Below, in pieces: positions 1-19,815 of a stretch of 64,000 bases of DNA; position 1 is the first letter of the stretch, and each line of letters begins with the position of its first letter. Location of the stretch: positions 124,001-188,000 of the forward strand of contig JBPGPT010000026.1 in the NCBI GenBank assembly GCA_051047955.1, written 5' to 3'. The stretch comes from Cystobasidiomycetes sp. EMM_F5. Its lineage: Eukaryota. The notes below the pieces were generated by a model, which had not been told where the DNA came from, did no database searches, and worked only from the letters and a program-made list of their open reading frames with translations. A program made the translations under genes and the position numbers.

Positions 1-1072
1 TGACGAGCTCCTCATCGTTTACAGCAATGACATCCGTGAGCGGACCCAATCTTCGCATAGTTCGACCCTCTGCAGCGTCTCGCAAAGGTTGCAGCAGCTC
101 CTCCTTGGACGCGATGGGCTTGCTGAAAGTTACGCTCAAATCGACCATTGAGACGTTATTGACTGGGACGCGCACGGATATGCCGGTGAACTTGCCATCA
201 AGTTCCGGCAGGACAAGTCGAATAGCAGCAGCAGCGCCTGTTGTGCTTGGGATGATGTTTGTTGCGACAGCTCGGCCTAATCGCTTGCTTTTTTTGTTGA
301 ATCCGTCCAATACCTGATTGGACGCAGTGGACGCATGAACCGTCGTCATCAATGCAGATTCAATGCCGAAATTGTCGTTCAGTAATTTTGCTAGCGGTGC
401 AAGACAATTCGTCTGTAGGCATAACAGTTTCAGCATTAATTTATCGGTATGGCTATTGGTCCAGTAACGCACTGTGCAGCTCGCGTTGGATACGACCTCC
501 ATGCTAGGATCATATACTCTCCTGTTCACGCCAACGACGATGGTAGGCGCATCCTTTGATGGAGCGGAGATAACGACCTTCTTTGCTCCTCCTATAATGT
601 GTTTTCGCGCAGATTCGACAGTCGTCATCTTGCCAGTACATTCTGCGATATACTCTGCTCCTGCAGACTTCCAGTCGATGAGAGTAGGGTCTCTCTGGCT
701 GAACAGGGCGATACGTCGGCCTCGAAAGAACAGAGCGCCATCCTCGATTGACAGATCTTTTGAATGTCGGCAGATACCATGCGTAGAATCGTACTTGATG
801 CCGTGCAATAAATGATCAAGTGATGGCGCTGTGTGATTTATTGCAACAACTTCAAGACCAAATATCAGTCGCGTCCCTTGGTTCAAGTGGCGACTGCAAA
901 GTCACCTAGGAGATCACTTCGGTCGAGCGAAGCACGGAAAGCAGCTCTGCCTATTATTGACAGAATCTCAGCTCGTCTCGTCCTTGCTTCATGGATTTGG
1001 TCACCCACCTATTCTTCCAAAGCCATTGATGCCAATGCGGCACGGTTGCTGACTGCCGTTGCTTATTGCCAT
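1..1072 (-). CDS. gpd: Glyceraldehyde-3-phosphate dehydrogenase, divergent paralog (3' end runs off window; spliced)
   Basis: Spliced minus strand reads MAISNGSQQPCRIGINGFGRIG...VVAINHTAPSLDHLLHGIKYDSTHG...VVSNASCT/TNCLAPLAK...NIIPSTTGAA...KFTGISVRVP; Rossmann and catalytic-Cys motifs of GAPDH. Confidence 0.95.
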
Positions 1073-1446
1073 TCTTTAGGTATTACTGCAGCCTTGTATG
1101 GTTGAGAATGTTCGCGCGTGAGTCGAAGAATGCAGACGAGCCAAAGAGCTGCCAGAAAACTTGCGTACAGCTGCAGCCCGGCAGCTCCGAAATGGCCCGG
1201 TGTGGGGAAGAGCGGACGAATCCATCTCCGTCCCCGGCTGCAAGCATCCGAGGGGCGCAATTCGGGTTGTAAGAGGTTCAGCTTGCAAGGATAGTCACGG
1301 GGAACTTGGTGTCAGCGCAGTCTTCGCTCTTGGGGTAACATCAGAGATTGCTGCTGTTGTTGCGTTTGGCCGAAAGTTTCGGATCCTGCCTTGCCTTGCC
1401 AGCAACAACGACAGACCGAGTGTGCATCGAGTACCATCAGCATGCC

Positions 1447-2248
1447 ATGACTGACGTCCAAGCTGGCATGCTGGGCGGCTATGCCGTCCAGTCGACTTCT
1501 GCCCGTCTGGCCGCTGGCACTGATGGGGAGCACGAAGAGCACCCTGTGTTCTCAGACGACGAGGCAGAACAGCCAGACAGCGAGCACAGCCATTCCCTGC
1601 ATTATCATGGTCACCGTGCAGCTACGTTCGTCTCGCACGATATTGACGAGTTGACTGAGCTGAGGGCTCGCCGTGAGTTGACGCATGAGGACAATCTGAA
1701 TATTACAGCAACCACCGTAGCTGAGAGCGACACGGCTTCGCTATCTATGACTCTGCCCGCATACTCTACAGAGCGCACATTCGAAGGGGCATACCAACGG
1801 ACGGCTCTGGGAATGGCGGCCTATGCCATCATAGTCCTCAAAATCTTCTCCGACGCCTTCGCTGCCAGTAAGCCAGCAAGCCTCACTCTGCCATAAAGTT
1901 ACCAACTCGCACACACTTTCTCTCACTCTCCCTACTTTTTTAAGTCGGCATATGCTACGTCGCCATGGCTGCCCTGCTCTTGATCGTTTCTTACGTTCGC
2001 AAGCAGAGGAGCAAACACGATTTCGCGGATGAGAACATGCCTCCCTCGCTGCCTAGTGAAGACACCGCTGGCAGGAAGCCCAAGCGATTGTGGGGTCGCA
2101 ATTTTAGGTGAGTTGGCTGCTTTTTCAACCAAAACATGGGCTGACATCTGCAGCCGACGTCAGAACCGTTGGTAACTTAGTAGTCTTCCTAGTGCTGTGT
2201 ATCGGAGGGCTTGAGGTTGCCATCCTTGTTATACTCATGCGTTTGTAG
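1447..2248 (+). CDS. DUF202-type small membrane protein (spliced)
   Basis: ERTFEGAYQRTALG motif followed by hydrophobic helices; introns near 1867-1944 and 2109-2163. Confidence 0.7.
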
Positions 2249-2620
2249 CAATATTCAATGATCTGAAGCAGACAGTTCATGTTCAAACACTTTAGTCAAA
2301 GCAATAGCAGCTCTTTGGAAAAGGCGGACCACCCTAGTCAGCTAGCAGCAGCAGCAGTAATAGCCAGCCGATTAGAAGTCACTGGCTCTTGCGTTACGAA
2401 CATCTCTATGGAGATAGCAGGCCTAGCTTCTCCGGCAGTCCGGCACATCATACGCACGATTCAGGAACGCCGGCGGCCCCGGGTTTTCTCCGTTCCATCT
2501 GCTACGTTCACGAATGTCAAGGGAAATGTGACACCATGCGCGCTTTAGACCTTGAAGCATCTTCCTCTGAGCCGACTCCGTCTTGCATTTGTGTCTCTAC
2601 TGAGTATTACAGAGCTGACC

Positions 2621-5166
2621 ATGCGACCCCTGAATCTCATCGAGAAGCTCATCCTCAATGCATCAGACGGAACCGGCAGTGTTGAGCTCGGATCTACGAT
2701 TCTACTGAATGTAGACTGGGTCCTGGCTTCCGAGCTTAGCTGGGCTGGGATGGACAAGGGTATGATGCCGCAAACGCAATGTCGCTCCAATACCTAATTT
2801 CTTGCTTCACCAGAGTACAACGCCGTCGGCCGGCCAAAGCTACCACGACCGGAGCGCTTCTGGTTGGCAGCTGATCACATAGTGTGCGTAATTGCGGAAA
2901 ACGATAATAATCCGATAGACACTGACGGTGGGTTTGATCATGACAGGCACCCTTCGTGCGTTCAGGCTGTATATGAGGTCTTCATGCCTGAAATCTGATG
3001 CTCCCGAGCGCAGAATCAACCATGTACCTAAAGTTGCAAAATTCATTGCTGCAGCTGAACGCATCTCGCGCGAACAACCTATCGACTACCACGGGCCCAA
3101 CGAAACCATTATGCACACGGAGTTTGTCCGCGGTAGGGCTGAGCGTCAGTATCCATTCCCATACTGTAAGTTCGCAAGTGCAGTCTGACTTGGACAATCG
3201 AGCAGCGGGCCAAATCATAGTCGGTGCCGACTCGCATAGCTGCAGTGCAGGCTGTCTTGGCGCATTAGCAATGGGGCTCGGCTCAACGGATACCGTTCTG
3301 GCGCTGATCACCCAACGCACCTTTCTTCAAGTGAGCACAATACAATACCCTGCAGTTGTGGCAGTCAACTTGATACCCTACCCAGGTGCCAGAGGTCTTG
3401 TCATTGCGGTTGGTTGGGATACCTCCGCCAGGTCTGGGAGGGAAAGACGTCATCCTATACATCCTGGGTCTGCTCAAACGAAATACAGTCGCTGCAGAGA
3501 GAGCTGTCGAGATTTCCGGTCCTGGCTTGGCTCACCTCAGCATCGATGCTCGATTCGCGATATGCAACATGATGACCGAGTTCGGTGCACTGACTGGCGT
3601 CTGCGTACCTGACGCACTTGTAAGTCGACTAACAATTTTCCTGATCCGCTCGTCAGCGCTGCTGAATAGGAGCAATCTAGACGATGGAGTATGTCAACAG
3701 ACGCGACAATACAGCTTTCACAAGCAATTCGATATGTTTCAAACCTGACGATGGCTGTACTTATGCCGAAACCTACATCATTGATCTCTCGCAAGTCTCG
3801 AGTCTGGTGGCGCTATATCCTTCTCCCGACAACACCACTACGGCCAAGGAAGTCGAAAATGGCCAAGGGCTAAAGCTTGATGGCTGCTTTATAGGCGCCT
3901 GTACCACAGCCTACGAGGATTTGGTCTTAGCGGCGTTGGTACTGGAGCTCGCATTGAGCGACGGTATGACACCAGTCGGAAGAGGTCACCGAAAGGTTCG
4001 TAAAGTCAAAGTAAATGTCATGATCGCGTATGGTTAATCATCGAAACCCTGGCAGGTGACGCCTGGAAGTCGGAAAATCGTACAAAGTCTTGAACAAGCC
4101 GGACTAAGTGATGTCTATCGCAAGGCTGGCTTCGATATCAACGTTCCCGGATGTAGCTACTGCGTGGGCCTAGGAGCAGACAAGGCCAAAGAAGGCGAGG
4201 TTTGGCTATCATCACAGAATCGGAATTTTAAGAATCGGTATGCGAAACAGTGTGTTAATGCTGCGACGGCTGAACGGCGTGAACAGGATGGGCACTGGGT
4301 CTTTTGGTAATCTGGCTTCCGCCGCGACGGTGGCGATTTCTTCGTTTGATATGGTAGTACGAGATCCAGAGCCTTGGCTGCATCGAATAGATCGAAGGCG
4401 GTTCGCGCGGCTATGCGGCGGAGGGAATATGGATCTAATGTTTGATCCTGTCTACAAAGAACCGTCACCTGTCAAAAGTGTCCAATCGACTACTCCCGAT
4501 AGTCGCAATACCCTCAAGAGTCTTGCCCCAATTTCAGGCAAAGTGCAAAGGTTCGGCGACGATGTTGACACAGATGCGATCAGTCCGGGTACGATGCAGT
4601 AGGCTTGGTCGTGATCATTGGCTGATGTTCACGACGACAAGGCGATCTCCTGATGAAGGCAGCGGAAGCCGAAACCTTGGAAGAGGCGGGTGAAGTGTGC
4701 TTCTACCACGAGCGTCCAGACTATAGATTCAAGGTTAAAGCTGGCTACGATATACTCGTGGCTGGTAAAGGCTTTGGTTGCGGTTCATCACGGGAAACTG
4801 GTACGTACAAGGATTGCAGAGGAAGACACACAGAACATTGCTGATCATGTCTCATTAGCTGCGACCGCTATAAAGGGATGCGGCACCAAAGCCATCATCG
4901 CAAAAAGTTACGCCTTCATTTTCCGGAGGAACACTGCGAACAACGCCATTCCGGCACTCATCGTAACGGAGGAGTCCTTTTATGAAGCTCTAGACTCCAT
5001 TGGTCCGGAAGCCGTAGTCAATATCGATTTCGACCAGGCTTCCATCAGTATCAGCACCCTTCCGAATGTATGGCCATACGTCATGAGTGCCATAGATTCA
5101 GATCTCTTGCGCAAAGGCGGCGCCATGAAAGCGTACGAGTGCTTCGGACTGGCCATGTACGACTAG
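2621..5166 (+). CDS. Aconitase-family [4Fe-4S] hydratase/isomerase, fused large+small (LeuC/LeuD-like) subunits; multi-exon
   Basis: ADSHSC, GKDVILYILG, DGCFIGACTT, PGCSYCVG (three cluster Cys), SSQNRNFKNRMG, and swivel-domain GDDVDTDAI and GKGFGCGSSRE motifs; start codon uncertain. Confidence 0.9.
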
Positions 5167-5333
5167 CTGTATCGGCAGGAAGGCGAGTAGGAAGATGGGC
5201 AGTATGCGAAGATGTACTGTGTAAAGATTTGTGAATGCTGAAAGGACGACGCGTTCGTAGAGCGAGGACCGCGGGCAACTTTACGTACATGTTTGAACTG
5301 CCTCTGAAAAGCATGAAAGAACCTTGTACATGT

Positions 5334-8108
5334 CTATGCTAGCAACCAGTCGAATTCGTCATCGGACTGCAGACCCGTGATGAGGGGAGGTTCTACCTCG
5401 GCATGGCTAGGGTGGTCCTGATTCATATATCTCATCAGGTCGTTCGAGAATGCCGTGAGCTCTTCCATCGTCATTTCGAACTGTGTTGTTTGAGGAGAAT
5501 TGGCGTATACTGGAGAAAGATAGCTGTTTTGACCCTTCGAGGCTTCCGGCGGCGGACTGGCATGTTCCAATAAAGGCGCATCCTTCGATGCCTGCTTAAC
5601 CAACGCGACCAATAACGTCTGCGGTGTTTGAGTGCTGGCCGACGCGAGGCGGAGGAGCATGTCGAGAACCCGTAAACACTGCTTTCCAGTCGACCGTATG
5701 ACCTGACTGCTAGATGATGAACCTCGCAAGAATAGCTGCCGAGCAGGCTCTATAACTACAGACAGCCCCTCGTCATGCCCCACCGCGAAATTGCGCTTGA
5801 AGACGCGGTGATAATGCGCGAGAACGATCACTACGACGGCGCTCATGACGTGCTGGTATGACCACCACATGGTATGACTGTATGCCACGACGTGAGCTGG
5901 TGCATTGGCCGCCAGGATGATCTGAGCGCATTGCAAGCATGTATTGGATGAATACTCGAAGCGCTGATCTTGCAGACCACGGAGACTGGCAGAAGACCGT
6001 GATAAGATGGTATGTCCAATCGGGTCTGAGACAACATGGCTTACAAGTATGGTCTGTGAATGCGTAAGAGCTGCGTAGCGTGGAGTAGGCAAGAGGAGCC
6101 GTATAAGTTCGAAACAGTCTCAAGGATGCGGATGAACCTACCCGTGCATGGATACCCGACGCAAGTGTAGCCTTTTGCGGCGCATCGATTGCAGCTTTGG
6201 TCAGATTGCCGAGATTACCAATGTCCAGTCCGGTGAATTCTCGATAGTGAGGTCTCCACAAGGCATCGAGTATACGCACCCGCTCATACGAGGTCGAGTG
6301 CGCCATTGCATTATCCTGAAGCTCAACTAGATAACATTGATACAATGTTCCGTCTGCGTCGCACCATTGACCCGAAGGTAATGGCGGCACCGTTAGATAG
6401 CTGCCGAGGCGGTCTCGATTTGTCCTTGTCGGCAAGGCAGTGATGTCTGTGTTGTAGGCATCAGCATTTTGAACAACAACCGCAAATACGGTCACCAACA
6501 AGATCCTTGTGCTATGTGTCTTTCATGTTTGCGGCCATTGCAGGACTTTGCATCGAGGGCAACTAACGCCCACCACCAACGCCGGGCCATTTCGCAGTGG
6601 AGGGAGCTCGGCCCGTTGAATGGAAGGGCCGGGTCGACGAAGAATGGGCATTCTTCAACCGTAGATGCGGCTGTCACGCGGTGTAATCCTAGCTGACGGG
6701 CTAGAGAGACAGCAGTTCCGATGAGAAGCCTGGCGTGCGCTCCGCCACCTAGATCGACATCCGACGACTCAGAGAAAGACAACGATCCTGAGTAAGAAAT
6801 GTAGTTGACCATTCCAATCAAGGTCTGCGTTGGACCAGTCAGTCTATCTGATGCATCTATTGTAGAAGCCATCACTTACTTGAACAACGTATAGTTGGGG
6901 CTTCTCCGTCCACTGAGCACACACCAAAGCCATCTGACAAGCCGCATACAGCTGTACTTGCAATTCAGGCGGCAGGGAATACGTGGGATTGCGCAGGCGC
7001 ACGGCAGCCGCTCCACGGGCAAGGCAATTCGCATACAAGGCTAGCCACGCGGGATCAAGTTGGTCGTATCTGTGGTAGAAACGCTGATTGTCGAAGTGAG
7101 TGCTCTGACTCCGGAAGCGCTCGATGTCCAAGTATGGTAGCAGGATCTCAACGTGATCGTAGAACGCGTCGAGAAGTATGCGGCACGTCGAGACTTCCGG
7201 GAATCCAGCGACGATGGTCTGCAGCATACTTCCGTGCAGACTATACGAGCTCAAAGCTTGCAACATGCGCGGTGGAGCGCGTCTTGACAATGTTGAATCG
7301 GAGATCGCAGAGGCGGGCTGATTCGTAGCTTGTATGTCAGTACATCGTGACCAAATTTCACAGCGTAGTTCTCACGGAAGGCGCAATTGCAGAATTATCA
7401 AGAACAAAGGGAAGAGCATTGCGTCCAGCCTCGCGCTCAGTCCGAATCGGCTCGCCAACATAGGCCATTGCTATGCTCTCTAGAGATTGCACAGCTACAT
7501 GTATATGCCGGTGTAAGTCTTCGGTTCGCATGCTTCCTCTGATAACACTGACCTTCTTCCAAACCGTCGTCTTCAGCGCTATCCGCTGGAGAAGCAGAAG
7601 GAGCTGCTGCTGCATGCGGCGGTGAGTCGCTGACTGTAGACGTGGCAGCAAAGGCTGCGGACTCTGGAAGCCGAGGTACACTCTTGAGCAATGACTCCAG
7701 AGCAGATACTCTCTTTGCAAGATGTTCCACGACGGCTGCATTGGCTGGATGATACGAGATAGCATTCCCCACATGATATGGCAGCGGCAGATCTCCTTGA
7801 AGTTTGTCAGAATCACGGAAAGCGCCATAGCACAAATTGGCCTCCCCTCGCTTTGTACATTCTACAGTTAGCAATGTCAGTCGCAAGGCTAGCCGTTCCC
7901 ACGAGTGAACATGGAGTACCGCTGCAAGGTATCTGCCTATCGCACTGAAAGTCTGCCGGTCAGCTTGAAAGGACTACTACCACCCACAAACTCTCACTTT
8001 GGCTTTTCTTCTCCTGCACTCTGCACATGCAAGTGGTCTTCTGCACTGTCTCTTGCGTACGGGCTCAGTATTGGTTGCGCTGACATCGAGTTCCAGCAAT
8101 CTCGACAT
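5334..8108 (-). CDS. Zn(II)2Cys6 transcription factor with fungal-specific TF middle domain
   Basis: Spliced N-terminus ACAECRRRKAK/CDRQIPCS/ECTKRGEANLC; LARQLGLHR, EMARRWWWAL and LRIHRPYF motifs. Confidence 0.9.
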
Positions 8109-8526
8109 GCAGCAGCGCACCAGCAGAGAACCGGTACGCTCGCGCAGACTGAGTGGTAGTCAGAGCTGCAACTTCATCAATGTCAGCGCTGCCTTGCGGT
8201 AAGCTGTCGCCCAATGCTGCCGGACCTGATTATACGGACTTCGCCGACGGCCTGGCCTTCCTTGCGAATCGTTCTCTGGTCCCCGGACCAGGCTGACTGA
8301 TGGCTTCTATGCTCATCGATGCTATTCCGCAAGTTTTCCCCGTGGCTGACATGCGCATAGTCCCGCCAGAGCAGTTCCGAGCGGTCCGCCCGGAGATCTT
8401 CAGGACATTAGCGGAGTCTCAACTCAGAAATGTCTGGAGAGATTGCAAGCGGGCGGACATCTGCGTGAAGGCAGGAGGACTCTGCGCGTCTACTCAGACT
8501 TCGTCTCTGACGGTACTTGAGAAGAC
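8109..8526. promoter_or_regulatory. Divergent promoter between the Zn2Cys6 gene and the lyase, rich in CGG/CCG triplets
   Basis: e.g. CGGACCTGATTATACGGACTTCGCCGACGG at 8221-8250 and CCGAGCGGTCCGCCCGGAG near 8377-8395; CGG is the usual Zn2Cys6 half-site. Confidence 0.45.
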
Positions 8527-9883
8527 ATGATTCAATCCACGAATGGTCATCATCACAGTACGGATCCCGCGACGAAGCTGCGCCAGCTCATTTCACGCGA
8601 CGGCATAGTATTCGCTCCCGGAGTGTTCGATGGCATCACTGCGCGAGGTAGCGTATGCGAATCCGAACTGTCACTTCAAATACTAAATGTACCTTATCGC
8701 GTCAGCTGCCGTCCAAACGGGTTTCGACTGCCTCTGTGAGACGATCCGAGACATCCGCGAGCATTCCTTTTCTGACCTCCTCGACAAATGCTGTAGACGT
8801 GAGTGGCGCGGCAGTGACCGCAAGCCGACTTGGTCTGCCGGATCTTGGCTTTGTCGGTATCGACGACTTCGTGGAAATAGCTTCCATGATGGCAGAGATA
8901 CCAGACTGCCCGCCTTTGATCTGCGACGCAGACACTGGCTTTGGAGGTGCTGCGCAAATCGCTCGCATGGTTCAACGCTACGTGAGTGAGCTGCAAGAAG
9001 ATGACGGTGACTGTGAGTATCTGAGCACCTGTGTAGCATCGTGCAGGTATTGCCGGCTTCCACATCGAAGACCAAATTCAGACGAAGCGATGCGGACACC
9101 TTCTCGGCAAACAACTGGTGTCCGAGGACGAATTCGTATCACGAATACGCGCAGCAAAGTTTGGACGTGACTCCGTTCCCGGCGGTTCCAGCATTGTACG
9201 TCTCGCCGTCATACAGAAGCTGGCAAACTCAATAGCTAAAACAGCAGTACAGGTCGTTATAGCAAGAACGGACGCTGTGCAGCTGTATGTACGCATTTTT
9301 CCCTAATTCAAGCCTGTAATTTGATCTTGCAATCTCGCGTTCTCAGTCACGGCATCGACGCTGCTATACAACGCATGAAGTCTTCAGTGGAGGCTGGTGC
9401 CGATGTCGCCTTTGTGGAGGGCGTAGAATCCGAAGACCAGGTACGACAGGTCGTGACAGCTCTCTCTCCGATCCCTGTTCTCGTAAACCTTGTCCACGGC
9501 GGAGTCACTCCTTCCTGGACAGCGAAGCAAGTACAAGAGATGGGCGCAAAACTAGCGGTAAGTCAGAAGTGAGGAGAGAACCGCCTGATCCCTGAATGCT
9601 AACGGTACATATAACCAGATTATGCCAGGTGCTTCACTCAAGCGTGTCGCAGAGGCTGCGCTTATGGCATACAGTAGCGTTAAGTCTATCAACGGCGAGG
9701 ATGGCTGTTTCACATCTCCCACTCTCTCGACCCCGCGAGCGTTCTTTGAATTTGTCGGTGAGGGGTGACGAGTCATGTTCGCAAATGTCGGATTGACGTT
9801 GAGATTATGCTTCTCAAGGTTTAAAGGAAGCTGTAAGGGCTGACGCGGCTGCAGGAGGAAAGCTGTACTCCAACGGTGTGTGA
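8527..9883 (+). CDS. Isocitrate lyase/PEP mutase superfamily enzyme, 2,3-dimethylmalate lyase / oxaloacetate-hydrolase-like
   Basis: APGVFDGITAR, ASRLGLPDLG, DADTGFGG, HIEDQIQTKRCGHLLGK catalytic loop, IARTDA, AGADVAFVEG. Confidence 0.92.
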
Positions 9884-10016
9884 TTAATTTTTATTGAGGA
9901 CAACGTAGCAACTAGGCGCGGAGCATTGAGGGTAGACTGCAAATCAAGACTAGCCATCGGGAGTGTGGGAAATGTAAATTGGAGGTCTGCAAATGCATAG
10001 GCCTTACTGACAAGGG

Positions 10017-10109
10017 CGGTCGCGTTAGCGGTCGTACTAACGGTCGTGCTAGAGGCTTACATGATCCTCAACACCCTTTCAGTGTTTATTTCCCTTTCAG
10101 TGTTTATTT
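10017..10109. repeat. Short tandem repeats: 3 x 12 bp (CGGTCGYRYTAR) and 2 x 18 bp (CCCTTTCAGTGTTTATTT)
   Basis: Read directly at 10017-10052 and 10074-10109. Confidence 0.75.
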
Positions 10110-10125
10110 CTCCGCTTGTGAGCGA

Positions 10126-11148
10126 CTACTTTCCATCGTCCGATGGCAGACTGACGGCCTGGACTGGCCCAGAACCTTGTAGAGGCCCGGTGCGGCTCGG
10201 GGACAGCAATTTGGTCTGCTTGCGATCGTGGATATCCCGTTCCTTCGCAGCAGAATCGTTACTTGATGTTGTTCGCGCCCTTGCGTGCTTGCCGAAAGAG
10301 TCTGGAGGATCAACTCGCGAGCTCGAACTAATGCGTTCTGGTCTGCCGTAGAAGCCAGAATCGTTCAATTGATTGACGTTCTGCTTGATCTGGCCTCGAA
10401 TTTGCGGCGCAGGCAGACGCGCACTTTGTGCAGCCGGTTGTGCAACTGCTTCGGCGAATCGGCGTGAAGGTGTCGCAGTTGTTTGCTCATTGCTCGTAGC
10501 TGTGTACCGTGGGCGAGACAGGCACAAATAAAGGAAGCAGAAGTCAGCAGATTACGTAGCTTGCTCAAATCGGTGCGCACAAAGATTTTCCAATTCGGCT
10601 GCGAGTCGATTTGCACTTTGGAATGCAAGCAATTGTTCAACTTGACTATGAGCCTCCAATGCCGCTCGGCGAAGCTCCCGTTCCCTCTCTCGCCAGGTTA
10701 CTTTGTCCTTCTCGAGCTGATCCAGCTTCGTTGATAACGTATCGATGCACTGTTGATACTCCGCTGCCTTTTCCTCCAGACTCTCGTTCCTTGCTCTGAG
10801 TCCTGCAACCATCTCGAAAAGTTCATCGTTCTTGTCCGTCAAGGCGTCGACCTTTTCCTGCATCCCTTGCTCGTCACCTAAATCGAGCTCTTGCTGCGAT
10901 GCGCATTCACTGTCGCGTTGGACGACGTTCTCCGCGCTCAGAGACGCAATCTCCTCCTGCATTTTCGAAATTTGTTCCACATGGGATTGCTTGATCCGTT
11001 TGTTCTCAGAGAGCAGAGCGTCGTATCTGCTTTGTAGGTCACTGCAGCGAGTCACCGGTTCGCGTTGATCATCCATTGCCAGCTGAGATTCTGGATTGCT
11101 GGTGCGAGAAGAAGTGCTGCGTGTTGGCAGAAAAGTGATCTCGGCCAT
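10126..11148 (-). CDS. Hypothetical coiled-coil protein (orphan, probably 2 exons)
   Basis: E/Q/K/L-rich heptad-like ORF 10552-11169 joins ORF 10126-10527 through a plausible GT..CTGAC..CAG intron; start (11148 or 11076) uncertain. Confidence 0.55.
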
Positions 11149-11228
11149 CGTGACGACTTGGACATACACCCATTTGACATAGAATTCTATCTACCGAGCA
11201 AGACCGCACTACCAAGCAGCTCATCACC

Positions 11229-14216
11229 ATGAACACGACCTTAGAAGCCCGCATTGCGCAGCGCATCCAAGAAATACGTATCAGTCACCGCGAGCGTGCT
11301 TTTCTATTGGGTCTGCCAGATCCGTTTGCACAAGGTCAATAACCAATCTTACGAGTGTTGCAGTATGCTGACAATTGCTTTACAAACTGCCCTTCAGATG
11401 AAGCTCAACACGCGCCTGCCTTATCTCCAGCGTCATCTCCTCCGTTGGCATATTCAATTGACCACAAAATGTAACATAGCTAACTCCCTGTGACTTCCCG
11501 TCCCTGTTCCCCTGTGAACAGACATCTACAGGTCGTAGCGCCGTTGGTATACGACCAGGATCACGACCAAGTGCACGACCAGCAGGCAGACGAAGCCCTT
11601 GCAGCCGAGCCATCCGACTCTGAGGGGATTGAGGATGACGCGCCGGTCCATACGGTCCCAGCACTCGACCTGGCTCTGCCAGATCAGAAGTTTTTCTACC
11701 TGGAAGAGCTACTGAGTCTGGACATGGCTGAAATTTCAGCTTTTGTCAAGCCCTCTCACCGGGAGATGGCCGAGCAGGTGGCATCGTCTCACCTATTTCG
11801 CCGCAATACGGAAGAGTGGTATCAAGACGTGAGTTCGATCGCGTTGGCCTAACGAGCGTATCTGACAAGGAGTCTGTAGGCTGTGCTCAAACTTGAGGGC
11901 CAAAACATCAATGCGGTGGTCAACGAATTACTGAAGATTTTCGAGGGAACTCTGCAGTCCATGACCAGAGATGGCCAATGGTCGCATATAGCAAGCGCCT
12001 ATCATCTCTTCATCGCTCAGTTCTGTACAGGCTATACACACGATTACAAGCCGCGGTTTGGAGACTGTCCAACTTGCCTCGATTTCACCCTCTTGCGACG
12101 GCTAGGACTATCTTCCGAAAATGAGGACATTCTGCAATTACTCGCTGTATCCCAGACTGCCGGCGGAGTGAGCACGACCCGGATCACCCGGCTGAGGAAG
12201 GACGGAGGAATGCCGTTCAGCCTGGTCACACACTATCTCGTTATGAGATTTCCGCAGCTCGTTATCGGACAGCAGCAGGACGAACCTCATGTATTCAAAG
12301 AGGATCGAGCGAACTATATGCTTGGCTCGAAAGCCTGGCGTCCGCTCGTCGATGCATACGAGAGAGTATTTTTGAGCGCTTTCTCTATAGGATATCTCAC
12401 CGAAGGTCTATTACCTGCCACTGCGTATACAGACGTCTTCACGAAGAATGCTCATCTTCCGATCTCAGATTACGAGCAATTACGAGTCATGGCTGGGAAG
12501 ACGAAAGGCTGCGAGATTTATGCGCAGATGACTGCTCACGACTTGAAAGAAGGGATGAAGCTACAAACGGGTAACGCCAAGAGTTTCAAAAGTCACTGGC
12601 TGGATCGTCTGAAGAAGCAGGTCTTAGAGAATGTGATCAAACAAGTGAATTCGGCAATTTCAGGCAATCAAGCCGACCAACTGGCCGAATGGGCTTCTCT
12701 GCGGAACGATCGCCTCTTCTTGGAGAATGTTGAGTCTGAAATGCAGGAGTATCCCGATGTCGCAAACTACCGTCAATTGAGCTGCGCTATTCAGGGCGCC
12801 ACACCTCGTCAAAGCGACTCCATATTACATCTGCAAGCAGCGACTTTCATCACCGATTTCTTCCATTTACAAGAGGATGCGCTCATCCCCGGCAGAGTTG
12901 TGTCTCAATACCGAACGCAAGCAGGCCAAATTGTTCACGGCAGCGCCTCAAACGAACGAGCCATCGATCTGGTCGACAGCATTGCCGAGCGTTTATACGA
13001 CAGTGTTTTCAAACCCATGCTTGATAAAACAGCTGCGCTGTTCCCGCAGGAGAAGGAGACGCCTCGAGCGTACGTGCCTTTGGATGATCGTTCCCAAGAA
13101 CTGACGCCGTATCATATTGCGGGCACTTCTGCGAGCGGAACCGGACGGAGCACACGCATACTCGACACAGGCATAATTGGGCTGGTCCGCAAAACAAACA
13201 TTGACTACGCCGGCTTCGTCACGGCGGATTTGCCGCCGCTGAATGATTCGCAGGATCCGAACCACTTCAAGACTGCGGCAAAGACCGTAGTTGATCTACA
13301 CAGAGCGCTGGATCCTCTGATCGAACAATGGAAGGCGGATCTGGACCGGGTCGCTCAGCCTGTTGTTTCTCAAAAAATCAGTAAACTCTACGACATGTTC
13401 CAGAGGCATAACAACAAGTGGGCTAAAACTGTCGCCAACGAGCGGGTTGATAAACACTGCGATATCGGCGTAAGCGCGATACTGGACATGCGCACCCTCG
13501 TACGACGAATCTTGTCTCACTTGGCTGATGAAAGCGTCATTGAAATGGCATATGTCGAAGATACTTGCCGTCTTTACGATCAGATACTCTGTATATCAGT
13601 CCATCTCCTCAATCCTGGCCTATGGTCTCTTGCCCTCGAGATCCTCCTACAGAAACTTCCGTCATACCCCCGCAGAATGGCGGCGAAAGTCAGAATCGCG
13701 CACGCAGAATTGTTTCTGGCCATGAGACATGGGCTCACAACGGCTTTCAGTCTCTCCGATGGTCAACGCGTGGGTCTCAACTGGACGACGGAAGAGATGA
13801 TTGGCAGACATAAGGACTCCATTCTTCGGTCAATATCTTTCATGGTTTCGGCACAACGTAATTTGTGCGCATGTAAGCACTGTCGCCGACTGCTATATGC
13901 TCACGAAGACACACTGCCCGCGCATCAGATTCTGGGTCCGCGCCAGCTGACCACGTCCTCCGTATACACGCGCATGGGACTTCGCGACATTGTTATCAAA
14001 GGCGCGTGCGGTGTTCCGCCGGCAATCATTCGCAGCTCCCGCGGTCCTTGCCCTTCCACCTACTGGCCGGAGTTCCTTTCCTTGGCGACGCTTGCCGCGC
14101 TGAAACGCATCGCCAAACTTGAGCATCGTTTCTGTAAATATGTGCGAGACCGCCCTTCCCAGGCGCTCATGCTGGCAACGCAACAGGCTCAAGAAGGCTT
14201 CGATGAGGAAGACTAG
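11229..14216 (+). CDS. Large hypothetical protein (~900+ aa, orphan)
   Basis: 777-codon open frame 11883-14216, preceded by a GTGAGT..CTGAC..TAG intron (~11829-11879) and small upstream exons; no recognised domain; CPTC and CACKHC motifs. Confidence 0.65.
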
Positions 14217-15148
14217 ACAAGCGGTGGCTGAGAATGACGAAGAATTCCAGCATCGTGTCGATCTGGCAGACATTCTCCTTGCTGGCAGGACATGTCATAG
14301 GTGCGGACAGAGCTAGCCAACTAGCAAACGTTCTTCTGGATCTGGAGAATCAGACAACTATGTCACCTCTGATCAGCCTTGTAAGAGGGTAGTATGGTAC
14401 TGTTGTCCGAGCGATTACCTGCCTGCGAGAAGACATTACACTTCGAAGTAATCCACATCTGTAGAAAGTGCAGTCACACAGCAGTCGTCTTGAAGCATAC
14501 TACTGAACGTTGTCTACGTCTAAGCTTGCTAGCGCCACCCTTTCCGATGTGCCTCAGCGTCCGAAGCGGCAGTCGGCATTTGCAAGCGCCATGGATGCAG
14601 AGGCGTGGTCAGTTTCTCAGACGACAGCGTCAAACGATCCAGCTCTTCTCGCAAGCGGTACCGTAACGACTTCAGTACTGCGCGTCCCGCTCTCCGACAT
14701 CGATGCCCCGAGGTCAATAGCGAAGCTTCCTGGACCTCGACTGGATACAGACCGTGTCACAGTCTGAATTGTATTAGTTGTGCTCTGTGGCTTTCAGTAT
14801 GCCTTTAAAATGTAGCCTTCCTCGCATTCCCAACGTTAGTCAATTGCCAATCGCTCTGCTCTCGTCGGAGTTGAGCGGGTTTGTGCAACGCACACGCCTC
14901 AGTCATGTCAGCCATGCCATCAGCTCCATGCTGCTTCTGCTTCTGCTTGCTCGCTGGCTGAGTTGCCCGACCGACCACTGGAACTGGAACGGAGATGGAC
15001 CGCATTTACCGGAGTCCGTGAAGTACGGCAATGCGGATATGAAGCAGACGTTCGAAGACGCGGATTGCCGTGCACGCTTTAAACGCGACACTGAGGTTAC
15101 ATTGCATTGGTCGACTATCCGCCTCTTTGAGAAATCGTACAGATCATC

Positions 15149-16872
15149 ATGACAGTCTCCGTTACCAGCCAGCTCACAGAATGGATTCAGGGACTGCAGC
15201 TGGCGCAAGTTCCCCAATACGTCAAGGATCGAACAAAAGCTCTCCTGATGGATGGCTTGGCGTGTGCACTTCTGGGCTCGCACTTGCCGTGGTCTGAGAC
15301 TGCGACTCGGACGATGGTCGACTTTGAAAGCTCAGGACCTTGTAGCGTGTGGGGCTGGACCGAGGTAGGCCTACCATGTCCTTCGATTGTTGATAACTCC
15401 TCACTGAACGCGCCGTGTCGTACTTAGAAATTGGGCCCGCTGTCGGCAGTTGTGCTCAATTCGTCGTTTGTACAAGGATTTGAGCTTGACGGTATGTACA
15501 ATCTAACGTCTGCACGCCACGAATGGAATCCGTCTGAACGCTAATTTCTGCAGACTTTCACCGTGTGGCGCCTGTGCACGGAGTCAGTATTGTACTTCCC
15601 GCGCTCATGGGTGTGGTTGAGCTTGAGGCAGCCAAAGGTACGCGAGCCTTTTCAAGGGGCCAGCAACATGAGCGGTTTCATTGACGACCGGTATTGTGAT
15701 TCAGGCCGTAAAATTTCTGGCAGCGAGTTCCTTCTCGCCGCAATTGTCGGACTTGAAGTATGTCCGCGAATCGGAGCCGGATTGGGGGGCAAGGACCTCT
15801 TAAGTCGAGGAATCCACTCTGGTGCGCTGATGGGTACGCAGAATTCACATGAATATGACGTATCTAGCGAATGACTTTGACCTGTCCTGCAGGACCCATC
15901 GGGGCTGCAGCAGCGAGCGCCAAGCTGCTCAATTTGTCCGCTATACAGATTGAGCACGCTATAGGTACAGCAGCGACCCAATCATCGGGCCTGATGTCTG
16001 CTCAAGCTGGCTCGATGGTGAAGCGAATGCAACATGGTTTTGCAGTTCGAAATGGCCTGTGCGCGGCGCTTCTAGCGCGTGGCGGCTACACAGGCATCGA
16101 GCAGGTCCTTGACGTACCCTACGGAGGCTTCTTCGCGGTATGGACGGCTGGCTCTCGTAAGGAACCGCAATCACAGCCCAACGCGGTCGTCAGTGATCTG
16201 GGGCAAGTGTGGTACATTATGGACTACGTGGTAAAACAGCATGCAACTATGGGAGCAAATCATACTCCAGTCGAATGCTTTGCGGCGTTGCAAGCGTCGG
16301 AACCTCGGGTCAATAAGGCAGACGAAATAGCCAATATTCATATCGAGGTTGCTGATGCAGCATATCACCATGGCTGCTTTCCACTGCCGACTTCTCCCTT
16401 ATCCTCCACTGCGGCTCAAATGTGCATGGGATATGCAATCGCATGTCAGCTGCTGGACAAGCAGGTCTTCGTGGAGCAATTTGCACACGACAAGCTGGAC
16501 CGTCCAGAAGTCCGAAGGATCGTAGATCACATTACCTATGAGAATGCTAGTGACATCCAGTCTTTCAAGAGCAGAATTAAGGTAACCTTTACCGACGGAC
16601 AGCAAGTCCGCCAGGAACTTTCGGCTGCGAAAGCTATCCATCCTGGCCTTAGCGATGCTGATATCCGGTAGGTTTCCGACATCAGTGTTGCTGGGCTTTC
16701 TTGGCGCTGATGAATCGCACACGTCAGTGAGAAAGCTGGTGCAATACTCGCCTTGGTTGTTGACTCGGATTCGAGGGGGAAGATCGAGAGTATGCTTACC
16801 TCGCTCGACATGGTCCAAGACTGTACAGACCTCGCATTACTGTTACAAAGGAACATTGTATGCCCCATATGA
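15149..16872 (+). CDS. MmgE/PrpD family protein resembling cis-aconitate decarboxylase (CadA/ACOD1-like)
   Basis: DGLACALLGSHLPWSE, LNSSFVQGFELDDFH, PVHG, IVGLEVCPRIG, GLMSAQAGSMVKRMQHGFAVRNG and PYGGF motifs, closely paralleling Aspergillus terreus CadA as recalled. Confidence 0.88.
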
Positions 16873-17125
16873 CGTCTAAATGGCGTAAAAGAAGCCGTGA
16901 GAGTCGATGCGACTGCAGTAGGGGAGCTGTGCACGACGAAGGGTGTTTGAGGAGCGTACATAGGAGGATTTTGCAATGACAATAGTCGGTTTATCTGATT
17001 TTCATGAACTGCGGGGATGCATGGGCCATTTGCGCTATGGAATTGGCTGCATCAAGGTTGCTCTGGACTTACTGCAGAACCAGGAGCAACACTGGCGTGG
17101 AGCCTGTCCAGCTACACCAGTCTAC

Positions 17126-19815
17126 ATGTCGTATCCCTATGCAGTGCCACCTGGTAGATCAACTCGTCCGGTATGTCGTCGGGGAGCTTGCACCGTACTG
17201 CGGAGGGAAAGCGTCGGCCCGACTGACATCGGATCTGCTGGACCAGCACGTAGCGAGGGCTTGCGATGCCTGCAGACAGCGCAAGTCCAAATGCGATGGA
17301 CAAGAGGCAAGCTCGGCGTATGGCCGCACTTGCGACTGCTTGGACTGACTCGCTGCCGTCCCTTCCGTTGTCAAGCCGTGCGAGCGTTGCCTGACATTTC
17401 AGAAGGGTGCTGTTCCATCGACTGATCTATGCGGTCCATCTCTGACCTACGTTCTTCGTAGAGTGCGTCTATCAACCCGTATTCCAAAGGAAAGGAAAGT
17501 GCCGCCAAGGCCCAAGATCCATTGAAATAACCTCCGCAATCGTCTCGGTACCGTTGACAGCGTCGGCGCATCTCTTTGACCATCGTGACTCTTCTGTGGG
17601 ACACGATGGAACGGAAGGAAATGTCCGCAGCCTTGAAGATGCTGGTGGAACTGCCACCGCCGTGCGAGATAAGTCTGTCGAAAACAGAGGTAGGAGTATA
17701 GGCAGCTGTCCCGGTAAGTGCTCACGCTAGATTCACGCAGCTGGACACATCATCTGCGACAACATACGAGGCAGCGCTACCCACAATTTCTTGCCGGCGC
17801 AGGCCGACGAGCGCGAAGAGCAGCTGACCAGCGGCTACGAGACAGATCACATGGTTCTTCCGGATCGCCAGACTGCCATGAAATACGTAGACGCCTACTT
17901 CGTGCTCAGTACAACATACCAGTATCTTTCGCGCTTGAACATAGAATCCTTAGTCTCCAACCACCTCAATTTCGAAAGCGCCACACCTCCAGATCCAGAA
18001 GCTAGTGGTCTCATACTCAGCATTATGGCTCTTGGGTCAGTCCGCTATTTCGCTCAGATGACGTCCTAGTACTCAATGTTTGTTCCTGGCGTATAGATGC
18101 CTCGCATCTACCTATCTCGATGCGGATTCAAGACGAATCGGCTCCTCCCTTGCACCGAGCATGAAGCTATACTGCGCTGCCAGATCTCGCCTCAAAAGCA
18201 TCTCTGACATACCGTGTAGATCATTGATGACCGTTCAAGCATGCATCACCATCGTACGTGCACTTTTTTGAATACTGAATTGCGTTATGAACTGTGCATC
18301 ACAACAGTCACAATTCCAGCTTGCGCTTGGATTCTGGCAGTCCGCGTGGTTCTCAATGGGGAGGGCTGTCCGAATAGCACTCATTGTCGGTCTTCATCGG
18401 GCTCGTGATGATGAGTCAATAGAAGAGCAGATCCGGAGGCGTACCTTCTGGTCACTCTATTTGTTGGACAGGCAAGGGCCGTTATTCGATCTCGTTGATG
18501 TCGTCTGACTATGCCAGCAGGTTTGTGTGCTTAAACCTCAACTTGCCGCTCTCCGTACAGGATGCTAGTATAACACAGAAGTTTCCCAGAATAGTTCCGG
18601 ATGAGCTAGGTGGGAGGCGGGTTTTTCCCGCCCGAGCTGGTCCAAGCTCCGCAAACCTCGAAGACGAGATCGCCTTGAGTGGCTTCATAGCGCGTGTCAG
18701 GTCTGTGTAGCCGTATGTGAGAGTAGACGTTTGCGCATCCCTGACTGCTACGCTCAGACTCAGCAGGATTACTGGACGTGTCTTGTCCAAGCTATACTCG
18801 CCTGCAGAGAATGCGGAAAACTTGGAGGCGGAAGAAAGGGACGCAGCCGTGAGCAGTCTAGTCCAAGAACTCAAGGCCTGGGAGATGGATATTCCGCCTT
18901 TCTTCGCGCCTGGCGGGCAGATTGAAACTTCTTTTGCTGACCTCTTCCAGCACGTGCCGTGGGTGCACAAGATGTGAGAGCCTGACGGACTCTATGCCAC
19001 TTTTCCGCACTGAGTAATATCCTTTAGGCAGAAGTGGATGATGACCTCGGCCTACTACCATACCAAGATGATCGTTTATCAGCCTTACCTCTTCCACGCG
19101 CTGCGCAGCGGTTGGGACGCACTCCGCGGAGGCTGTGTCCGGATTGCAAATCCGCCTCAGAGAATAGTAGAGTGCGTGGTGGCTGCTCGCTTCCTGGTCG
19201 CTCAAGCTCTCTCGAGGGAAGACAGCTCACGTAGCGCCCTTTTCTTGGTGAGCACAATCATGCCCAGACACATGTATAAAAGGTCAGGTACTCATTGCTG
19301 CCTGTGCTCACAGAGCTCGACACACTTCGTTTCCAGTGCAGTGGCGGTCCTTCTGCTTTACCTCATTGTCTTTACTGTCCCCGACTCGAACGACATACTA
19401 GAAAGCGTTCAAAAAGTGATGGACGGCTACATCAGAGAGTCTCCTAATTCCAAACAAGTGGCTAAAGGTCTCGAAGTGAGTTATTGCTTGTCCAATAGCC
19501 TTTAGGTGGAGCCGCTGAATTTCTGCAAAGGATCTGAGAGCTGTCCTGGCAGCTGCGATGGTGGATGAACGACAAGACGAAATTATTGGAAATTCAACAG
19601 GAGTTGCTGCATTAAGTCGCCCTACGTCTAGCAATATTACTTACAATCAGCACACGCCTGGCTATATCGTCAATACGATTCCTGAGCAAGCGTTCGACAT
19701 CAACGACCTCTTCTCGGAGACGCTAAACAACGCCTTTGGGTCCACCAATTTATGGAACAACCTGGATCTAGCAGTACCGACTTTTGACTCAGTCAACGCA
19801 GGTGGCTGGTACTAG
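17126..19815 (+). CDS. Zn(II)2Cys6 transcription factor with fungal-specific TF domain
   Basis: ACDACRQRKSKCDGQE/PCERC.../ECVY; AVRIALIVGLHR and EEQIRRRTFWSLYLLDR motifs. Confidence 0.92.

Follow-up and report, generated by a model that had tools for sequence, protein, structure and literature searches.

A fungal gene group encoding an aconitase-family hydratase, a dimethylmalate-lyase-like enzyme and a CadA-like protein: a candidate module for CoA-independent acid cleavage

Described systems and composition of the locus

The nicotinate fermentation of Eubacterium barkeri employs a LeuCD-like dimethylmaleate hydratase, DmdAB, together with a 2,3-dimethylmalate lyase, Dml. In our searches, operons of the order GntR-LeuC-LeuD-lyase-TctC were found in Burkholderiales and Alphaproteobacteria, and they resemble the E. 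barkeri system in combining an aconitase-family hydratase with a lyase of the PEP-mutase/isocitrate-lyase (ICL) family around an alkylmalate intermediate, without CoA. PrpD, aconitase and PrpB, which close the 2-methylcitrate cycle in its final three steps, belong to the three enzyme families found at the locus considered here and follow a dehydrate-rehydrate-cleave logic. In fungi, the MmgE/PrpD family includes the cis-aconitate decarboxylase CadA of Aspergillus terreus, HadA of A. niger and OryM of A. oryzae, and CadA-like enzymes occur in alkylcitrate and oryzine clusters, as described in PMC7338620 and PMC6162547; in the alkylcitrate case, HadA is described as shifting the output from hexylaconitate to hexylitaconate, that is, as decarboxylating hexylaconitate (PMC7338620). 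Itaconate degradation through Ict, Ich and Ccl (ictA, ichA and cclA of A. niger) takes a branched C5 dicarboxylate to pyruvate and a C2 unit, as the locus considered here might, but proceeds through CoA esters and with enzyme families unrelated to ours (PMC6862759).

The locus lies at positions 1-19815 of the window, the 64 kb stretch of DNA that was analysed, and its genes are fungal and intron-rich (Table 1). All six genes named by a previous sequence-only reading were located there by Pfam searches on stop-free pieces, PDB sequence searches and splice-aware reading. The adjacency of each regulator to an enzyme gene, also proposed then, is borne out: TF1 and the lyase gene are divergent and 418 bp apart, and TF2 lies 3' of the MmgE/PrpD gene. 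Between the lyase and MmgE/PrpD genes, about 5 kb are occupied by two genes absent from that reading, a coiled-coil ORF and an orphan. Transporter genes, and genes resembling CoA transferases or CitE-type lyases (Pfam), are absent from 1-19815.

Table 1. Features of the locus in window coordinates
Feature	Position	Strand	Basis and remarks
Divergent GAPDH gene, truncated at its 3' end by the window edge	1..~1066	-	Pfam Gp_dh_N 58.7 bits, Gp_dh_C 137.8 bits
9-mer ATGTCAGCC	2139..2147	-	~480 bp upstream of hydratase start
Fused large-plus-small-subunit aconitase-family Fe-S hydratase, 670 aa, 10 exons	2621..5166	+	Pfam Aconitase and Aconitase_C in one chain
Hydratase exons	2621-2759, 2814-2883, 2966-3144, 3206-3330, 3386-3619, 3681-3995, 4056-4237, 4287-4588, 4642-4800, 4859-5166	+	
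TF1, Zn2Cys6 regulator	5334..8108	-	Minus-strand reading; Fungal_trans weak (E 0.0018, below cutoff) on 6495-6875; downstream model approximate
9-mer ATGTCAGCC	8344..8352	-	In the divergent promoter of TF1 and lyase, 183 bp before the lyase start
PEP-mutase/isocitrate-lyase-superfamily lyase, fungal OAH/dimethylmalate-lyase class, 313 aa, 8 exons	8527..9883	+	Pfam PEP_mutase, ICL; PDB matches OAH 3lye, DMML 3fa3
Lyase exons	8527-8647, 8706-8735 (30-nt micro-exon), 8797-8981, 9037-9195, 9253-9284, 9347-9557, 9619-9757, 9819-9883	+	Hand model
Coiled-coil ORF, intervening	10555..11190	-	Weak sub-threshold ZapB and SHE3 matches; model approximate, uncertain
Orphan protein, ~900 aa, intervening	11229..14216 (solid ORF 11880-14216)	+	No Pfam family; 5 relatives (see text)
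9-mer ATGTCAGCC	14905..14913	+	~245 bp upstream of MmgE/PrpD start
MmgE/PrpD-family protein, fungal CadA/HadA-like clade, 470 aa, 6 exons	15149..16872	+	Pfam MmgE_PrpD_N, MmgE_PrpD_C
MmgE/PrpD exons	15149-15364, 15428-15491, 15554-15637, 15705-15833, 15893-16667, 16728-16872	+	tblastn with P0121, P0126
TF2, Zn2Cys6 regulator	~17254..19815	+	Pfam Zn_clus 21.7 bits (cutoff 21), Fungal_trans 27.8 bits (cutoff 23); start codon uncertain

Three enzymes outside the housekeeping families

The hydratase, whose gene model was refined by comparison with relatives, retains the three cysteine ligands and the GADSH and GSSRE motifs, is 48–49% identical over its full length to members of a fungal clade and keeps 133 of the 151 columns invariant in that clade. 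It had been taken for a fused LeuC/D-type hydratase; the fusion and the aconitase family hold, but the clade is of the archaeal IPMI/homoaconitase type and not LeuCD proper, the Methanocaldococcus homoaconitase HacA/HacB (M. jannaschii) being its closest solved relative. An ordinary Leu1 or Lys4 is ruled out because the clade scores far below the cutoffs of both models, with 151–164 bits for LeuC (TIGR00170, cutoff 560) and 169–180 bits for Lys4 (TIGR00139, cutoff 529.9). HMGL-like synthases adjoin clade members in 11 of 43 bacterial loci and IPMDH in 6 of the 43, and early-fungal members are fused to IPMDH; these relatives and contexts make an alkylmalate plausible as the intermediate common to the cluster enzymes. 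Relatives in Pezizomycotina carry 120–160 additional residues at the N-terminus, which are missing here, and no N-terminal extension is present in the other two enzymes either, which fits a single compartment, the cytosol.

The lyase retains DADTGFGG and EDQ..KRCGH, so that the KRCGH loop reported earlier is seen in the complete 313-residue model, and it is 52–56% identical to fungal OAH-class proteins. The fold and this loop are common to A. niger 2,3-dimethylmalate lyase (DMML; An07g08390, PDB 3fa3) and fungal OAH (3lye). DMML is the top PDB match of exon 6 (E 3.5e-13), whereas OAH outscores it on exon 3; where OAH has a serine, the window protein, like DMML, has a proline, and an ordinary OAH ortholog was rejected on this substitution. 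Compared with 73 OAH-class relatives, the lyase deviates at 28 of 121 near-invariant columns, and its N-x-x-E stretch reads NLVH where DMML has NMVE and OAH has NSVE. We know of no biological role established for DMML in fungi.

The MmgE/PrpD protein is 38–46% identical to its fungal relatives, retains 79 of 91 clade-invariant columns and has cis-aconitate decarboxylases as its top PDB matches (E 1e-13), with about a quarter of residues identical to the solved mammalian enzymes as read from the alignment. It is not an ordinary PrpD, since the PrpD model NF006943 (cutoff 575) gives 26 bits for the window exon and 28 bits for the relative P0121. On two fungal-like contigs (L244, L247) its relatives adjoin a citrate synthase and a second MmgE/PrpD gene, a layout that matches the alkylcitrate clusters with a decarboxylating CadA-like member as described in PMC7338620, and the designation CadA-like is therefore reasonable by clade context; near the window gene, however, genes for citrate synthase, FAS and PEBP are lacking.

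None of the three proteins is thus an ordinary ortholog of Leu1, Lys4, PrpD or OAH, and their catalytic motifs are intact. All have long branches (for the hydratase, an end branch of 1.72 against a median of 0.16), and their nearest relatives are only about 46–55% identical.

Gene neighbourhoods and competing readings

Bacterial loci provide precedents for the pairings. A LeuCD-like hydratase lies within 7 kb of the lyase in 51 of 80 lyase-centred loci and directly upstream in at least 22, by coordinates read by eye; GntR/UTRA regulators accompany 9 of these 22 and TctC uptake receptors 10. The window hydratase shares only about 30% identity with the operon enzymes and departs from them and from DmdAB in its clade and in being fused into one chain; the window genes also differ in being eukaryotic, intron-rich and associated with Zn2Cys6 regulators. 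The window further adds the CadA-like protein, present in just 1 of the 80 lyase-centred loci. Close members of the hydratase clade have neither lyase nor MmgE/PrpD genes nearby (0 of 43 bacterial loci).

In bacteria an MmgE/PrpD gene may also adjoin the lyase, as in 12 of 79, 3 of 80 and 3 of 80 loci of three sets; in the second of these, no hydratase lies near the MmgE/PrpD-clade members (0 of 80). Three bacterial loci (L135, L322, L323) carry all three families, and the operon L135 unites LeuCD and lyase with three MmgE/PrpD paralogs. Such arrangements, and the fact that the trio represents the families of the last three 2-methylcitrate cycle steps, would suit a copied set of the cycle's later steps acting on a ready-made hydroxy-tricarboxylate: a substituted citrate would be dehydrated by the MmgE/PrpD enzyme, converted to an isocitrate-type acid on rehydration by the aconitase-type enzyme and then cleaved by the PrpB-like lyase. 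We consider this improbable and the least likely of the readings weighed here. The window trio is not orthologous to the cycle enzymes, as the PrpD-model scores illustrate, and has no mitochondrial extension; a synthase gene is absent from the window; and the window protein falls in the CadA/HadA-like clade, to which fungal clusters add a separate, better-scoring MmgE/PrpD protein, presumably the dehydratase.

The GAPDH gene at the left edge has the GINGFGRIG motif in exon 1 near 1024 and one in-frame intron inside the 2-901 piece. Calling it atypical is fair, as the top PDB match (1ihx) reaches only 240 bits over 300 aa, with yeast TDH3 lower; it has no evident role in the pathway in which it had been included. 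It could find a place in a CoA-independent biosynthetic cluster for an acid of the itaconate or alkylmaleate type, in which the lyase would condense a 2-oxo acid with a carboxylic acid to an isocitrate-type acid, the aconitase-type enzyme would dehydrate it and the CadA-like enzyme would decarboxylate the product. Resistant GAPDH copies occur in heptelidic-acid clusters, and the odd GAPDH might be a self-protection copy in a cluster that may extend to the left of the window, whose edge cuts the gene. Aconitase followed by CadA is also the known itaconate route, and the citrate-synthase neighbourhoods of MmgE/PrpD relatives and the alkylcitrate and oryzine clusters agree with such a function. 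Nevertheless, we judge this unlikely: Pfam scans of the whole window were negative for citrate synthase, FAS/PKS, PEBP and exporter genes, lyases of the OAH/dimethylmalate-lyase class are known for cleavage, and the bacterial hydratase-lyase operons, with their uptake receptors and GntR repressors, fit catabolism.

Conserved linkage was found in none of the fungal-like contigs or named fungi examined. Among 80 metagenome loci with MmgE/PrpD relatives, the third of the sets above, only 3 have a lyase and 1 a distant hydratase; the six long eukaryote-like loci (L242, L244, L245, L247, L248, L252) have neither; and the hydratase and MmgE/PrpD relatives listed for Rhizodiscina lignyota, Aspergillus tetrazonus and Cladophialophora immunda sit on contigs of unequal length. 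The relatives used are only 40–57% identical and so may be paralogs rather than orthologs. This pattern agrees with chance adjacency of three independent accessory paralogs, two regulators and lineage-specific genes in a fast-evolving region, with no common pathway. The group is interrupted by two unrelated genes, of which the orphan matches nothing in Pfam at E values as high as 1 and has only 5 relatives at E of 0.001 or lower in a set of 1.84 billion representatives; divergence is region-wide, the best orphan identity (49%) being comparable to those of the enzymes. Zn2Cys6 genes are plentiful in ascomycete genomes, so two close by are not remarkable, and some such trios are expected because this one was selected from a very large scan. 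Against chance, fungal genomes have few members of each of the three families, whose chemistries complement one another, and by a rough, post hoc estimate from the family sizes their meeting within 15 kb is improbable; moreover, bacterial operons repeat the pairings, and a short promoter serves TF1 and the lyase divergently.

The regulators and promoters bear on the same question. TF1 has the motif C-x2-C-x6-C-x5-C-x2-C-x8-C, interrupted near 7998-7850 by two introns, which is why Pfam missed it; TF2 has the motif's first half at 17262-17294, and an intron of the GC-AG type plus a further intron are needed to complete the six cysteines. The 9-mer of Table 1 is present in the promoters of all three enzyme genes and once more in the 64 kb, within an unrelated dehydrogenase gene. 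Any 9-mer was shared in 92 of 4000 random triples and 66 of 3000 shuffles (P about 0.02), with four word lengths tried and promoter bounds set by hand; the word speaks against chance and may weakly indicate co-regulation. Overall, chance adjacency is a serious contender and nearly as likely as the module favoured below.

A possible three-enzyme module

The CoA-independent pathway proposed from the sequence alone gains from the recurrence of the hydratase-lyase pairing in bacteria and from the non-housekeeping nature of the enzymes, but not from conserved fungal linkage. The lack of a transporter gene, the two intervening genes and the long branches of the three proteins also weigh against it. 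That reading had also remarked on the lack of an itaconate-to-citraconate isomerase. To our knowledge, the known CadA products are itaconates, and we know of no LeuCD-type hydratase that hydrates them; the problem of the missing isomerase therefore stands unless the window enzyme yields a citraconate-type product. Aconitate, itaconate and citraconate as substrates are guesses.

We tentatively favour a module in which the CadA/HadA-like enzyme would take CO2 (less likely water) off an aconitate- or citrate-type polycarboxylate, leaving a 2-substituted maleate such as citraconate, to which the IPMI/homoaconitase-type hydratase would add water. The dimethylmalate-lyase-like enzyme would then break the C2-C3 bond of the resulting alkylmalate, releasing pyruvate or glyoxylate as the 2-oxo acid together with a short carboxylic acid. 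We infer the joint action, step order, substrate and catabolic direction from the enzyme families and their bacterial counterparts. With TF1 and/or TF2 activating the genes in response to the acid, the locus may represent a lineage-specific, regulator-controlled cytosolic route by which an aconitate- or alkylmaleate-type acid would be converted to an alkylmalate and cleaved without CoA.

Gene content and promoters of positions 1–19815

Numerous short GT-AG introns interrupt the genes of this stretch, which identifies the window as fungal. Stop-free pieces of positions 1–22000 (146 of the 154 listed) were scanned with Pfam and the matches checked by PDB sequence searches. Gene models were then built with a codon-usage gene finder, corrected by hand and compared with relatives, which served to place the starts and junctions of the lyase, hydratase and MmgE/PrpD genes and the start of TF1; the models of the two regulators, TF1 and TF2, and of the coiled-coil gene are approximate. 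All of the genes that the sequence-only reading had named in 1–19815 were recovered by Pfam, PDB searches and gene models, but its list omitted two intervening genes, the coiled-coil ORF and an orphan protein. The latter belongs to no Pfam family and has five relatives among 1.84 billion representative proteins.

Genes at 1–19815 of the window
Feature	Position	Strand	Description
GAPDH	1–~1066	(-)	cut by window edge; first exon with GINGFGRIG motif
Hydratase	2621–5166	(+)	670 aa, fused aconitase-family enzyme
TF1	8108–5334	(-)	Zn2Cys6 regulator (predicted)
Lyase	8527–9883	(+)	313 aa, PEP-mutase/ICL family, 30-nt micro-exon, KRCGH loop
Coiled-coil ORF	10555–11190	(-)	
Orphan protein	11229–14216	(+)	~900 aa
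MmgE/PrpD protein	15149–16872	(+)	470 aa
TF2	~17254–19815	(+)	second Zn2Cys6 regulator (predicted)

The GAPDH at the window edge is markedly divergent and is transcribed divergently from the hydratase gene; its top PDB match reaches only 240 bits across 300 residues, with the animal enzymes scoring above yeast TDH3. It might belong, for instance as a resistant copy, to a cluster extending further left. Two splicing features are unusual: the micro-exon of the lyase gene (8706–8735), which contributes a portion of the conserved N-terminal strand, and the GC-AG intron of TF2 described below.

As the signature of a Zn2Cys6 regulator we used the pattern C-x2-C-x6-C-x5-12-C-x2-C-x6-8-C together with a fungal_trans middle region. 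In TF1 the full six-cysteine motif is read across two introns, a split that explains why Pfam missed the zinc cluster, and the Fungal_trans match is weak (E = 0.0018). In TF2, Pfam detected both Zn_clus (21.7 bits) and Fungal_trans (27.8 bits), and the full motif is read across a probable GC-AG intron (17306–17376) that lies inside it. Both genes are thus predicted to encode Zn2Cys6 fungal transcription factors. A six-frame search returned no unsplit copy of the motif, and a partial match at 6161–6193 (-) was dismissed because its reading frame differs from that of the TF1 model.

TF1 and the lyase gene share a divergent promoter of 418 bp. Copies of the 9-mer ATGTCAGCC lie upstream of all three enzyme genes, at 2139 for the hydratase, 8344 for the lyase and 14905 for the MmgE/PrpD gene, and the 64 kb contain just one more, at 30651, which was rejected as a promoter-like site because it falls inside a predicted dehydrogenase gene. 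In chance controls, 92 of 4000 random window triples and 66 of 3000 shuffles had a 9-mer common to their members; since four word lengths were tried and the promoter bounds were set by hand, the common word is suggestive only, an indirect hint of possible co-regulation. CGG-type regulator sites are numerous in every promoter, and a post-hoc pattern (CGG, 0–1 base, AGTCCG) with just two occurrences in the window, one upstream of each of the hydratase and MmgE/PrpD genes, was rejected as evidence for being too contrived.

Family placement of the three enzymes

The hydratase carries the Aconitase and Aconitase_C domains on one chain (Pfam matches in five exon pieces between 2992 and 5163), and the complete model aligns with relatives over its whole length. 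Its IGACTT, GCSYC, GADSHS and GCGSSRE segments match invariant columns in an alignment of 17 relatives; we take the three cysteines to be the ligands of a 4Fe-4S cluster, and GADSH and GSSRE to be motifs of the aconitase superfamily. On its domains and motifs the protein is assigned to the IPMI/homoaconitase branch of that superfamily. It is 48–49% identical, over the full length, to a fungal clade whose members are variously labelled aconitase, LYS4 or isopropylmalate dehydratase. Against the Lys4 model TIGR00139 (cutoff 529.9 bits), P0101 and P0014, the relatives nearest to it, reach 180 and 169 bits and one 124-aa piece of the window protein 49 bits, and against the LeuC model TIGR00170 (cutoff 560 bits) the two relatives score 164 and 151 bits. 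With the clade so far under both cutoffs, an ordinary Leu1 or Lys4 ortholog, an outcome that the sequence-only reading had named as fatal to its proposal, is ruled out, and the clade is placed by its scores in neither family.

The solved structure nearest to the hydratase clade is the Methanocaldococcus jannaschii homoaconitase. Bacterial members of the clade, 42–49% identical to the fungal ones, have an adjoining HMGL-like synthase in 11 of 43 loci and IPMDH in 6 of 43. In early-diverging fungi (Mortierella, Coemansia, Glomeromycota, Neolecta) the clade occurs fused behind a full isopropylmalate-dehydrogenase domain, in proteins of 1000–1100 aa (P0012, P0016, P0039, P0042 and about 25 others). 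Taken together, the structure, the fusion and the synthase/IPMDH neighbours suggest that the clade is an alkylmalate isomerase acting in 2-oxoacid elongation. In the window hydratase itself the Fe-S ligands are intact, as are 133 of the 151 columns invariant in the clade. It has a tree branch of 1.72 against a median of 0.16, groups weakly with another long-branch protein, and is without the N-terminal extension of 120–160 residues present in Pezizomycotina members.

The lyase matches PEP_mutase (37.2 bits) and ICL (31.1 bits) in single exons and has both the catalytic loop EDQIQTKRCGH and the metal site DADTGFGG. Fold, K(R)CGH loop and DxDxG site place it in the lyase branch of the PEP mutase/isocitrate lyase superfamily, and it is 52–56% identical to fungal proteins of the oxaloacetate acetylhydrolase (OAH) class. 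An active-site serine was reportedly recognised by Joosten et al. in 2008 as the marker of OAH. At this position the Cryphonectria OAH structure 3lye and the OAH-class relative P0295 have Ser (IFSF in 3lye), whereas the window lyase has Pro (IMPG), as does the Aspergillus niger 2,3-dimethylmalate lyase 3fa3; the comparison was bridged via P0295, as exon 7 of the lyase (46 aa) gave no match as a PDB query. Since this marker serine is replaced by Pro, the protein is predicted to act as a lyase and not to hydrolyse oxaloacetate. It also departs from 28 of 121 columns that are near-invariant among 73 OAH-class relatives. Our criteria for a 2,3-dimethylmalate lyase were Pro at the marker position, which the window protein has, and specificity for (2R,3S)-dimethylmalate. 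The OAH-like fungal enzyme identified as such a lyase has no known biological role.

The third enzyme has both terminal domains of the MmgE/PrpD family on one exon (MmgE_PrpD_N, 79 bits; MmgE_PrpD_C, 70 bits) and is accordingly classed in it by Pfam. Its fungal relatives, 38–46% identical, form a clade annotated as "immune-responsive protein" or "aconitate decarboxylase"; identity to actinobacterial proteins is about 40%. Family membership alone would accommodate a variant of a methylcitrate-like dehydratase, but the PrpD model NF006943 (cutoff 575 bits) gives 26 bits for the 267-aa window exon and 28 bits for the full-length relative P0121. An ordinary PrpD ortholog can therefore be dismissed, the protein is far from 2-methylcitrate dehydratase PrpD, and we regard the variant as decidedly unlikely. 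The top PDB matches are mammalian cis-aconitate decarboxylases, weak at E = 1e-13; in that alignment Lys stands opposite chain K207 and K272, and Met opposite H277, residues that we take to form the catalytic His/Lys set of the mammalian enzyme.

Gene neighbourhoods in bacteria and fungi

Around bacterial members of the MmgE/PrpD clade (loci L001–L080), a lyase is found in 3 of 80 loci and a hydratase in none; the frequent neighbours are a directly adjoining PEBP gene (24 of 80) and isochorismatase (16 of 80). Likewise, none of the 43 close bacterial loci of the hydratase clade has a lyase or MmgE/PrpD partner. A more distant locus from a Burkholderiales MAG, L135, has the order GntR, LeuC, LeuD, lyase, MmgE/PrpD, MmgE/PrpD, MBL-fold protein, MmgE/PrpD. 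When its lyase was used as seed, a LeuCD-like hydratase lay within 7 kb in 51 of 80 loci, by coordinates directly upstream in at least 22, and these 22 include 10 with TctC uptake receptors and 9 with GntR/UTRA regulators. With its MmgE/PrpD protein as seed, 12 of 79 loci had a lyase, 4 a hydratase and 2 both. By these counts the hydratase–lyase pair is a catabolic module common among bacteria, and the trio is real but rare. Operons of the GntR-LeuC-LeuD-lyase type occur widely across Burkholderiales and Alphaproteobacteria (L161–L240, e.g. L162, L185, L211, L219); genes in their vicinity often include a TctC receptor, hydantoinase A/B or a family III CoA transferase.

Linkage in fungi was assessed in one metagenome scan seeded with the MmgE/PrpD clade (80 loci) and in Rhizodiscina lignyota, Aspergillus tetrazonus and Cladophialophora immunda. 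A lyase was present in 3 of the 80 loci and a distant hydratase in 1, and none of these four is eukaryote-like. The six long eukaryote-like loci contain neither hydratase nor lyase. In the three named fungi, the hydratase and MmgE/PrpD relatives are on contigs of unlike size. Among the other relatives, P0001 is a hydratase fragment of 69% identity on a 15-kb contig, and the proteins P0072 and P0131 are each listed with a longest contig of 478,883 bp and may therefore come from a single one. The conserved linkage on which the sequence-only reading had staked its cluster was thus seen neither in these six loci nor in the three fungi, and the window's own gene combination is absent from all fungal relatives in this material. 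The available portions of the literature yielded no description of a hydratase–lyase–MmgE/PrpD combination in fungi. Adjacency of the three genes by chance is nearly as likely as a joint pathway; the lack of conserved linkage in this fungal material speaks for it, and the common promoter word is the hint of co-regulation on the other side.

A Pfam scan of the flanks of the long eukaryote-like loci covered the longer pieces (57 of 120), L245 being omitted because its ORF layout repeats that of L244. L244 and L247 contain citrate synthase, a second MmgE/PrpD gene and an MFS transporter, L244 additionally PEBP; the flanks of L242, L248 and L252 hold unrelated genes. In alkylcitrate clusters, according to the available parts of two papers, the CadA-like HadA and OryM decarboxylate alkylaconitate (PMC7338620; PMC6162547). 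The layout of citrate synthase with a second MmgE/PrpD gene matches these clusters, and the label "CadA-like" given by the sequence-only reading is therefore fair for the clade; we had at first judged it a poor one from the low PDB similarity, and gave up that view once the fungal neighbourhoods had been examined. This clade context supports a putative decarboxylase role for the window protein. That the window genes belong instead to a biosynthetic cluster, possibly extending left of the window, would suit this likeness; we consider it quite unlikely. In the fungal-like L244, the MmgE/PrpD clade gene is near the PEBP gene and next to citrate synthase, and the decarboxylase–PEBP pairing seems to be conserved from bacteria to fungi.

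A possible CoA-independent route

Fungi produce and break down itaconate, citramalate and alkylcitrates, and both the aconitase-type hydratase and the lyase families are promiscuous. The only degradation route described in the literature consulted is CoA-dependent (PMC6862759). The reading we retain, tentatively, is that the three enzymes may act jointly in a short CoA-free pathway, which their chemistry would suit. A CadA-type enzyme would convert an aconitate-type acid to a 2-substituted maleate, an IPMI-type hydratase would turn this into an alkylmalate, and a dimethylmalate-lyase-type enzyme would cleave the product. From the family contexts and the promiscuity of both families, the hydratase and lyase plausibly have a common alkylmalate intermediate. 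The weak points of the joint pathway are that no conserved fungal linkage is seen, that two genes interrupt the cluster and that the cluster has no transporter; a further one, which the sequence-only reading also saw, is the regiochemistry of the decarboxylase step.

A more specific version, which we think unlikely, is a eukaryotic CoA-independent "aconitate-to-alkylmalate" shunt of CadA-type, neofunctionalised IPMI/homoaconitase-type and dimethylmalate-lyase-type enzymes in series. The diverged CadA-type enzyme would decarboxylate either cis-aconitate or some alkyl-aconitate from competing fungi or plants, with a citraconate-type maleate as product instead of an itaconate; the hydratase would then convert the citraconate-type maleate to an alkylmalate, which the lyase would cleave to pyruvate or glyoxylate and a short acid.

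A second metabolic gene group begins about 6 kb right of the cluster, headed at 26194–26940 (-) by an arylmalonate-decarboxylase/maleate-isomerase family member encoded in one exon (PF17645, E = 2e-11) and continuing at 27431–29993 (-), 30097–31520 (+) and 31533–33461 (-) with an MFS transporter, a zinc-type dehydrogenase and a PLP-dependent decarboxylase. To judge from its family, the PF17645 protein could be an isomerase or decarboxylase of maleate-type acids, with a bearing on the isomerase that the sequence-only reading had found missing.

All component families are known, as is the bacterial logic; what would be new, and is so far unproven, is a eukaryotic version. The bacterial LeuCD–lyase modules follow the same logic, whereas the window version would be built from different paralogs. 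If the grouping is due to chance, its value is that of three well-annotated divergent paralogs and no more. The shunt, if true, would give a physiological role to the long-orphan fungal dimethylmalate-lyase class. A working hydratase–lyase–decarboxylase module would provide a pathway for that class, would mean that the bacterial LeuCD–lyase logic is present in eukaryotes, from different paralogs, and would offer CoA-free enzymes for the biotechnology of C5–C6 acids.
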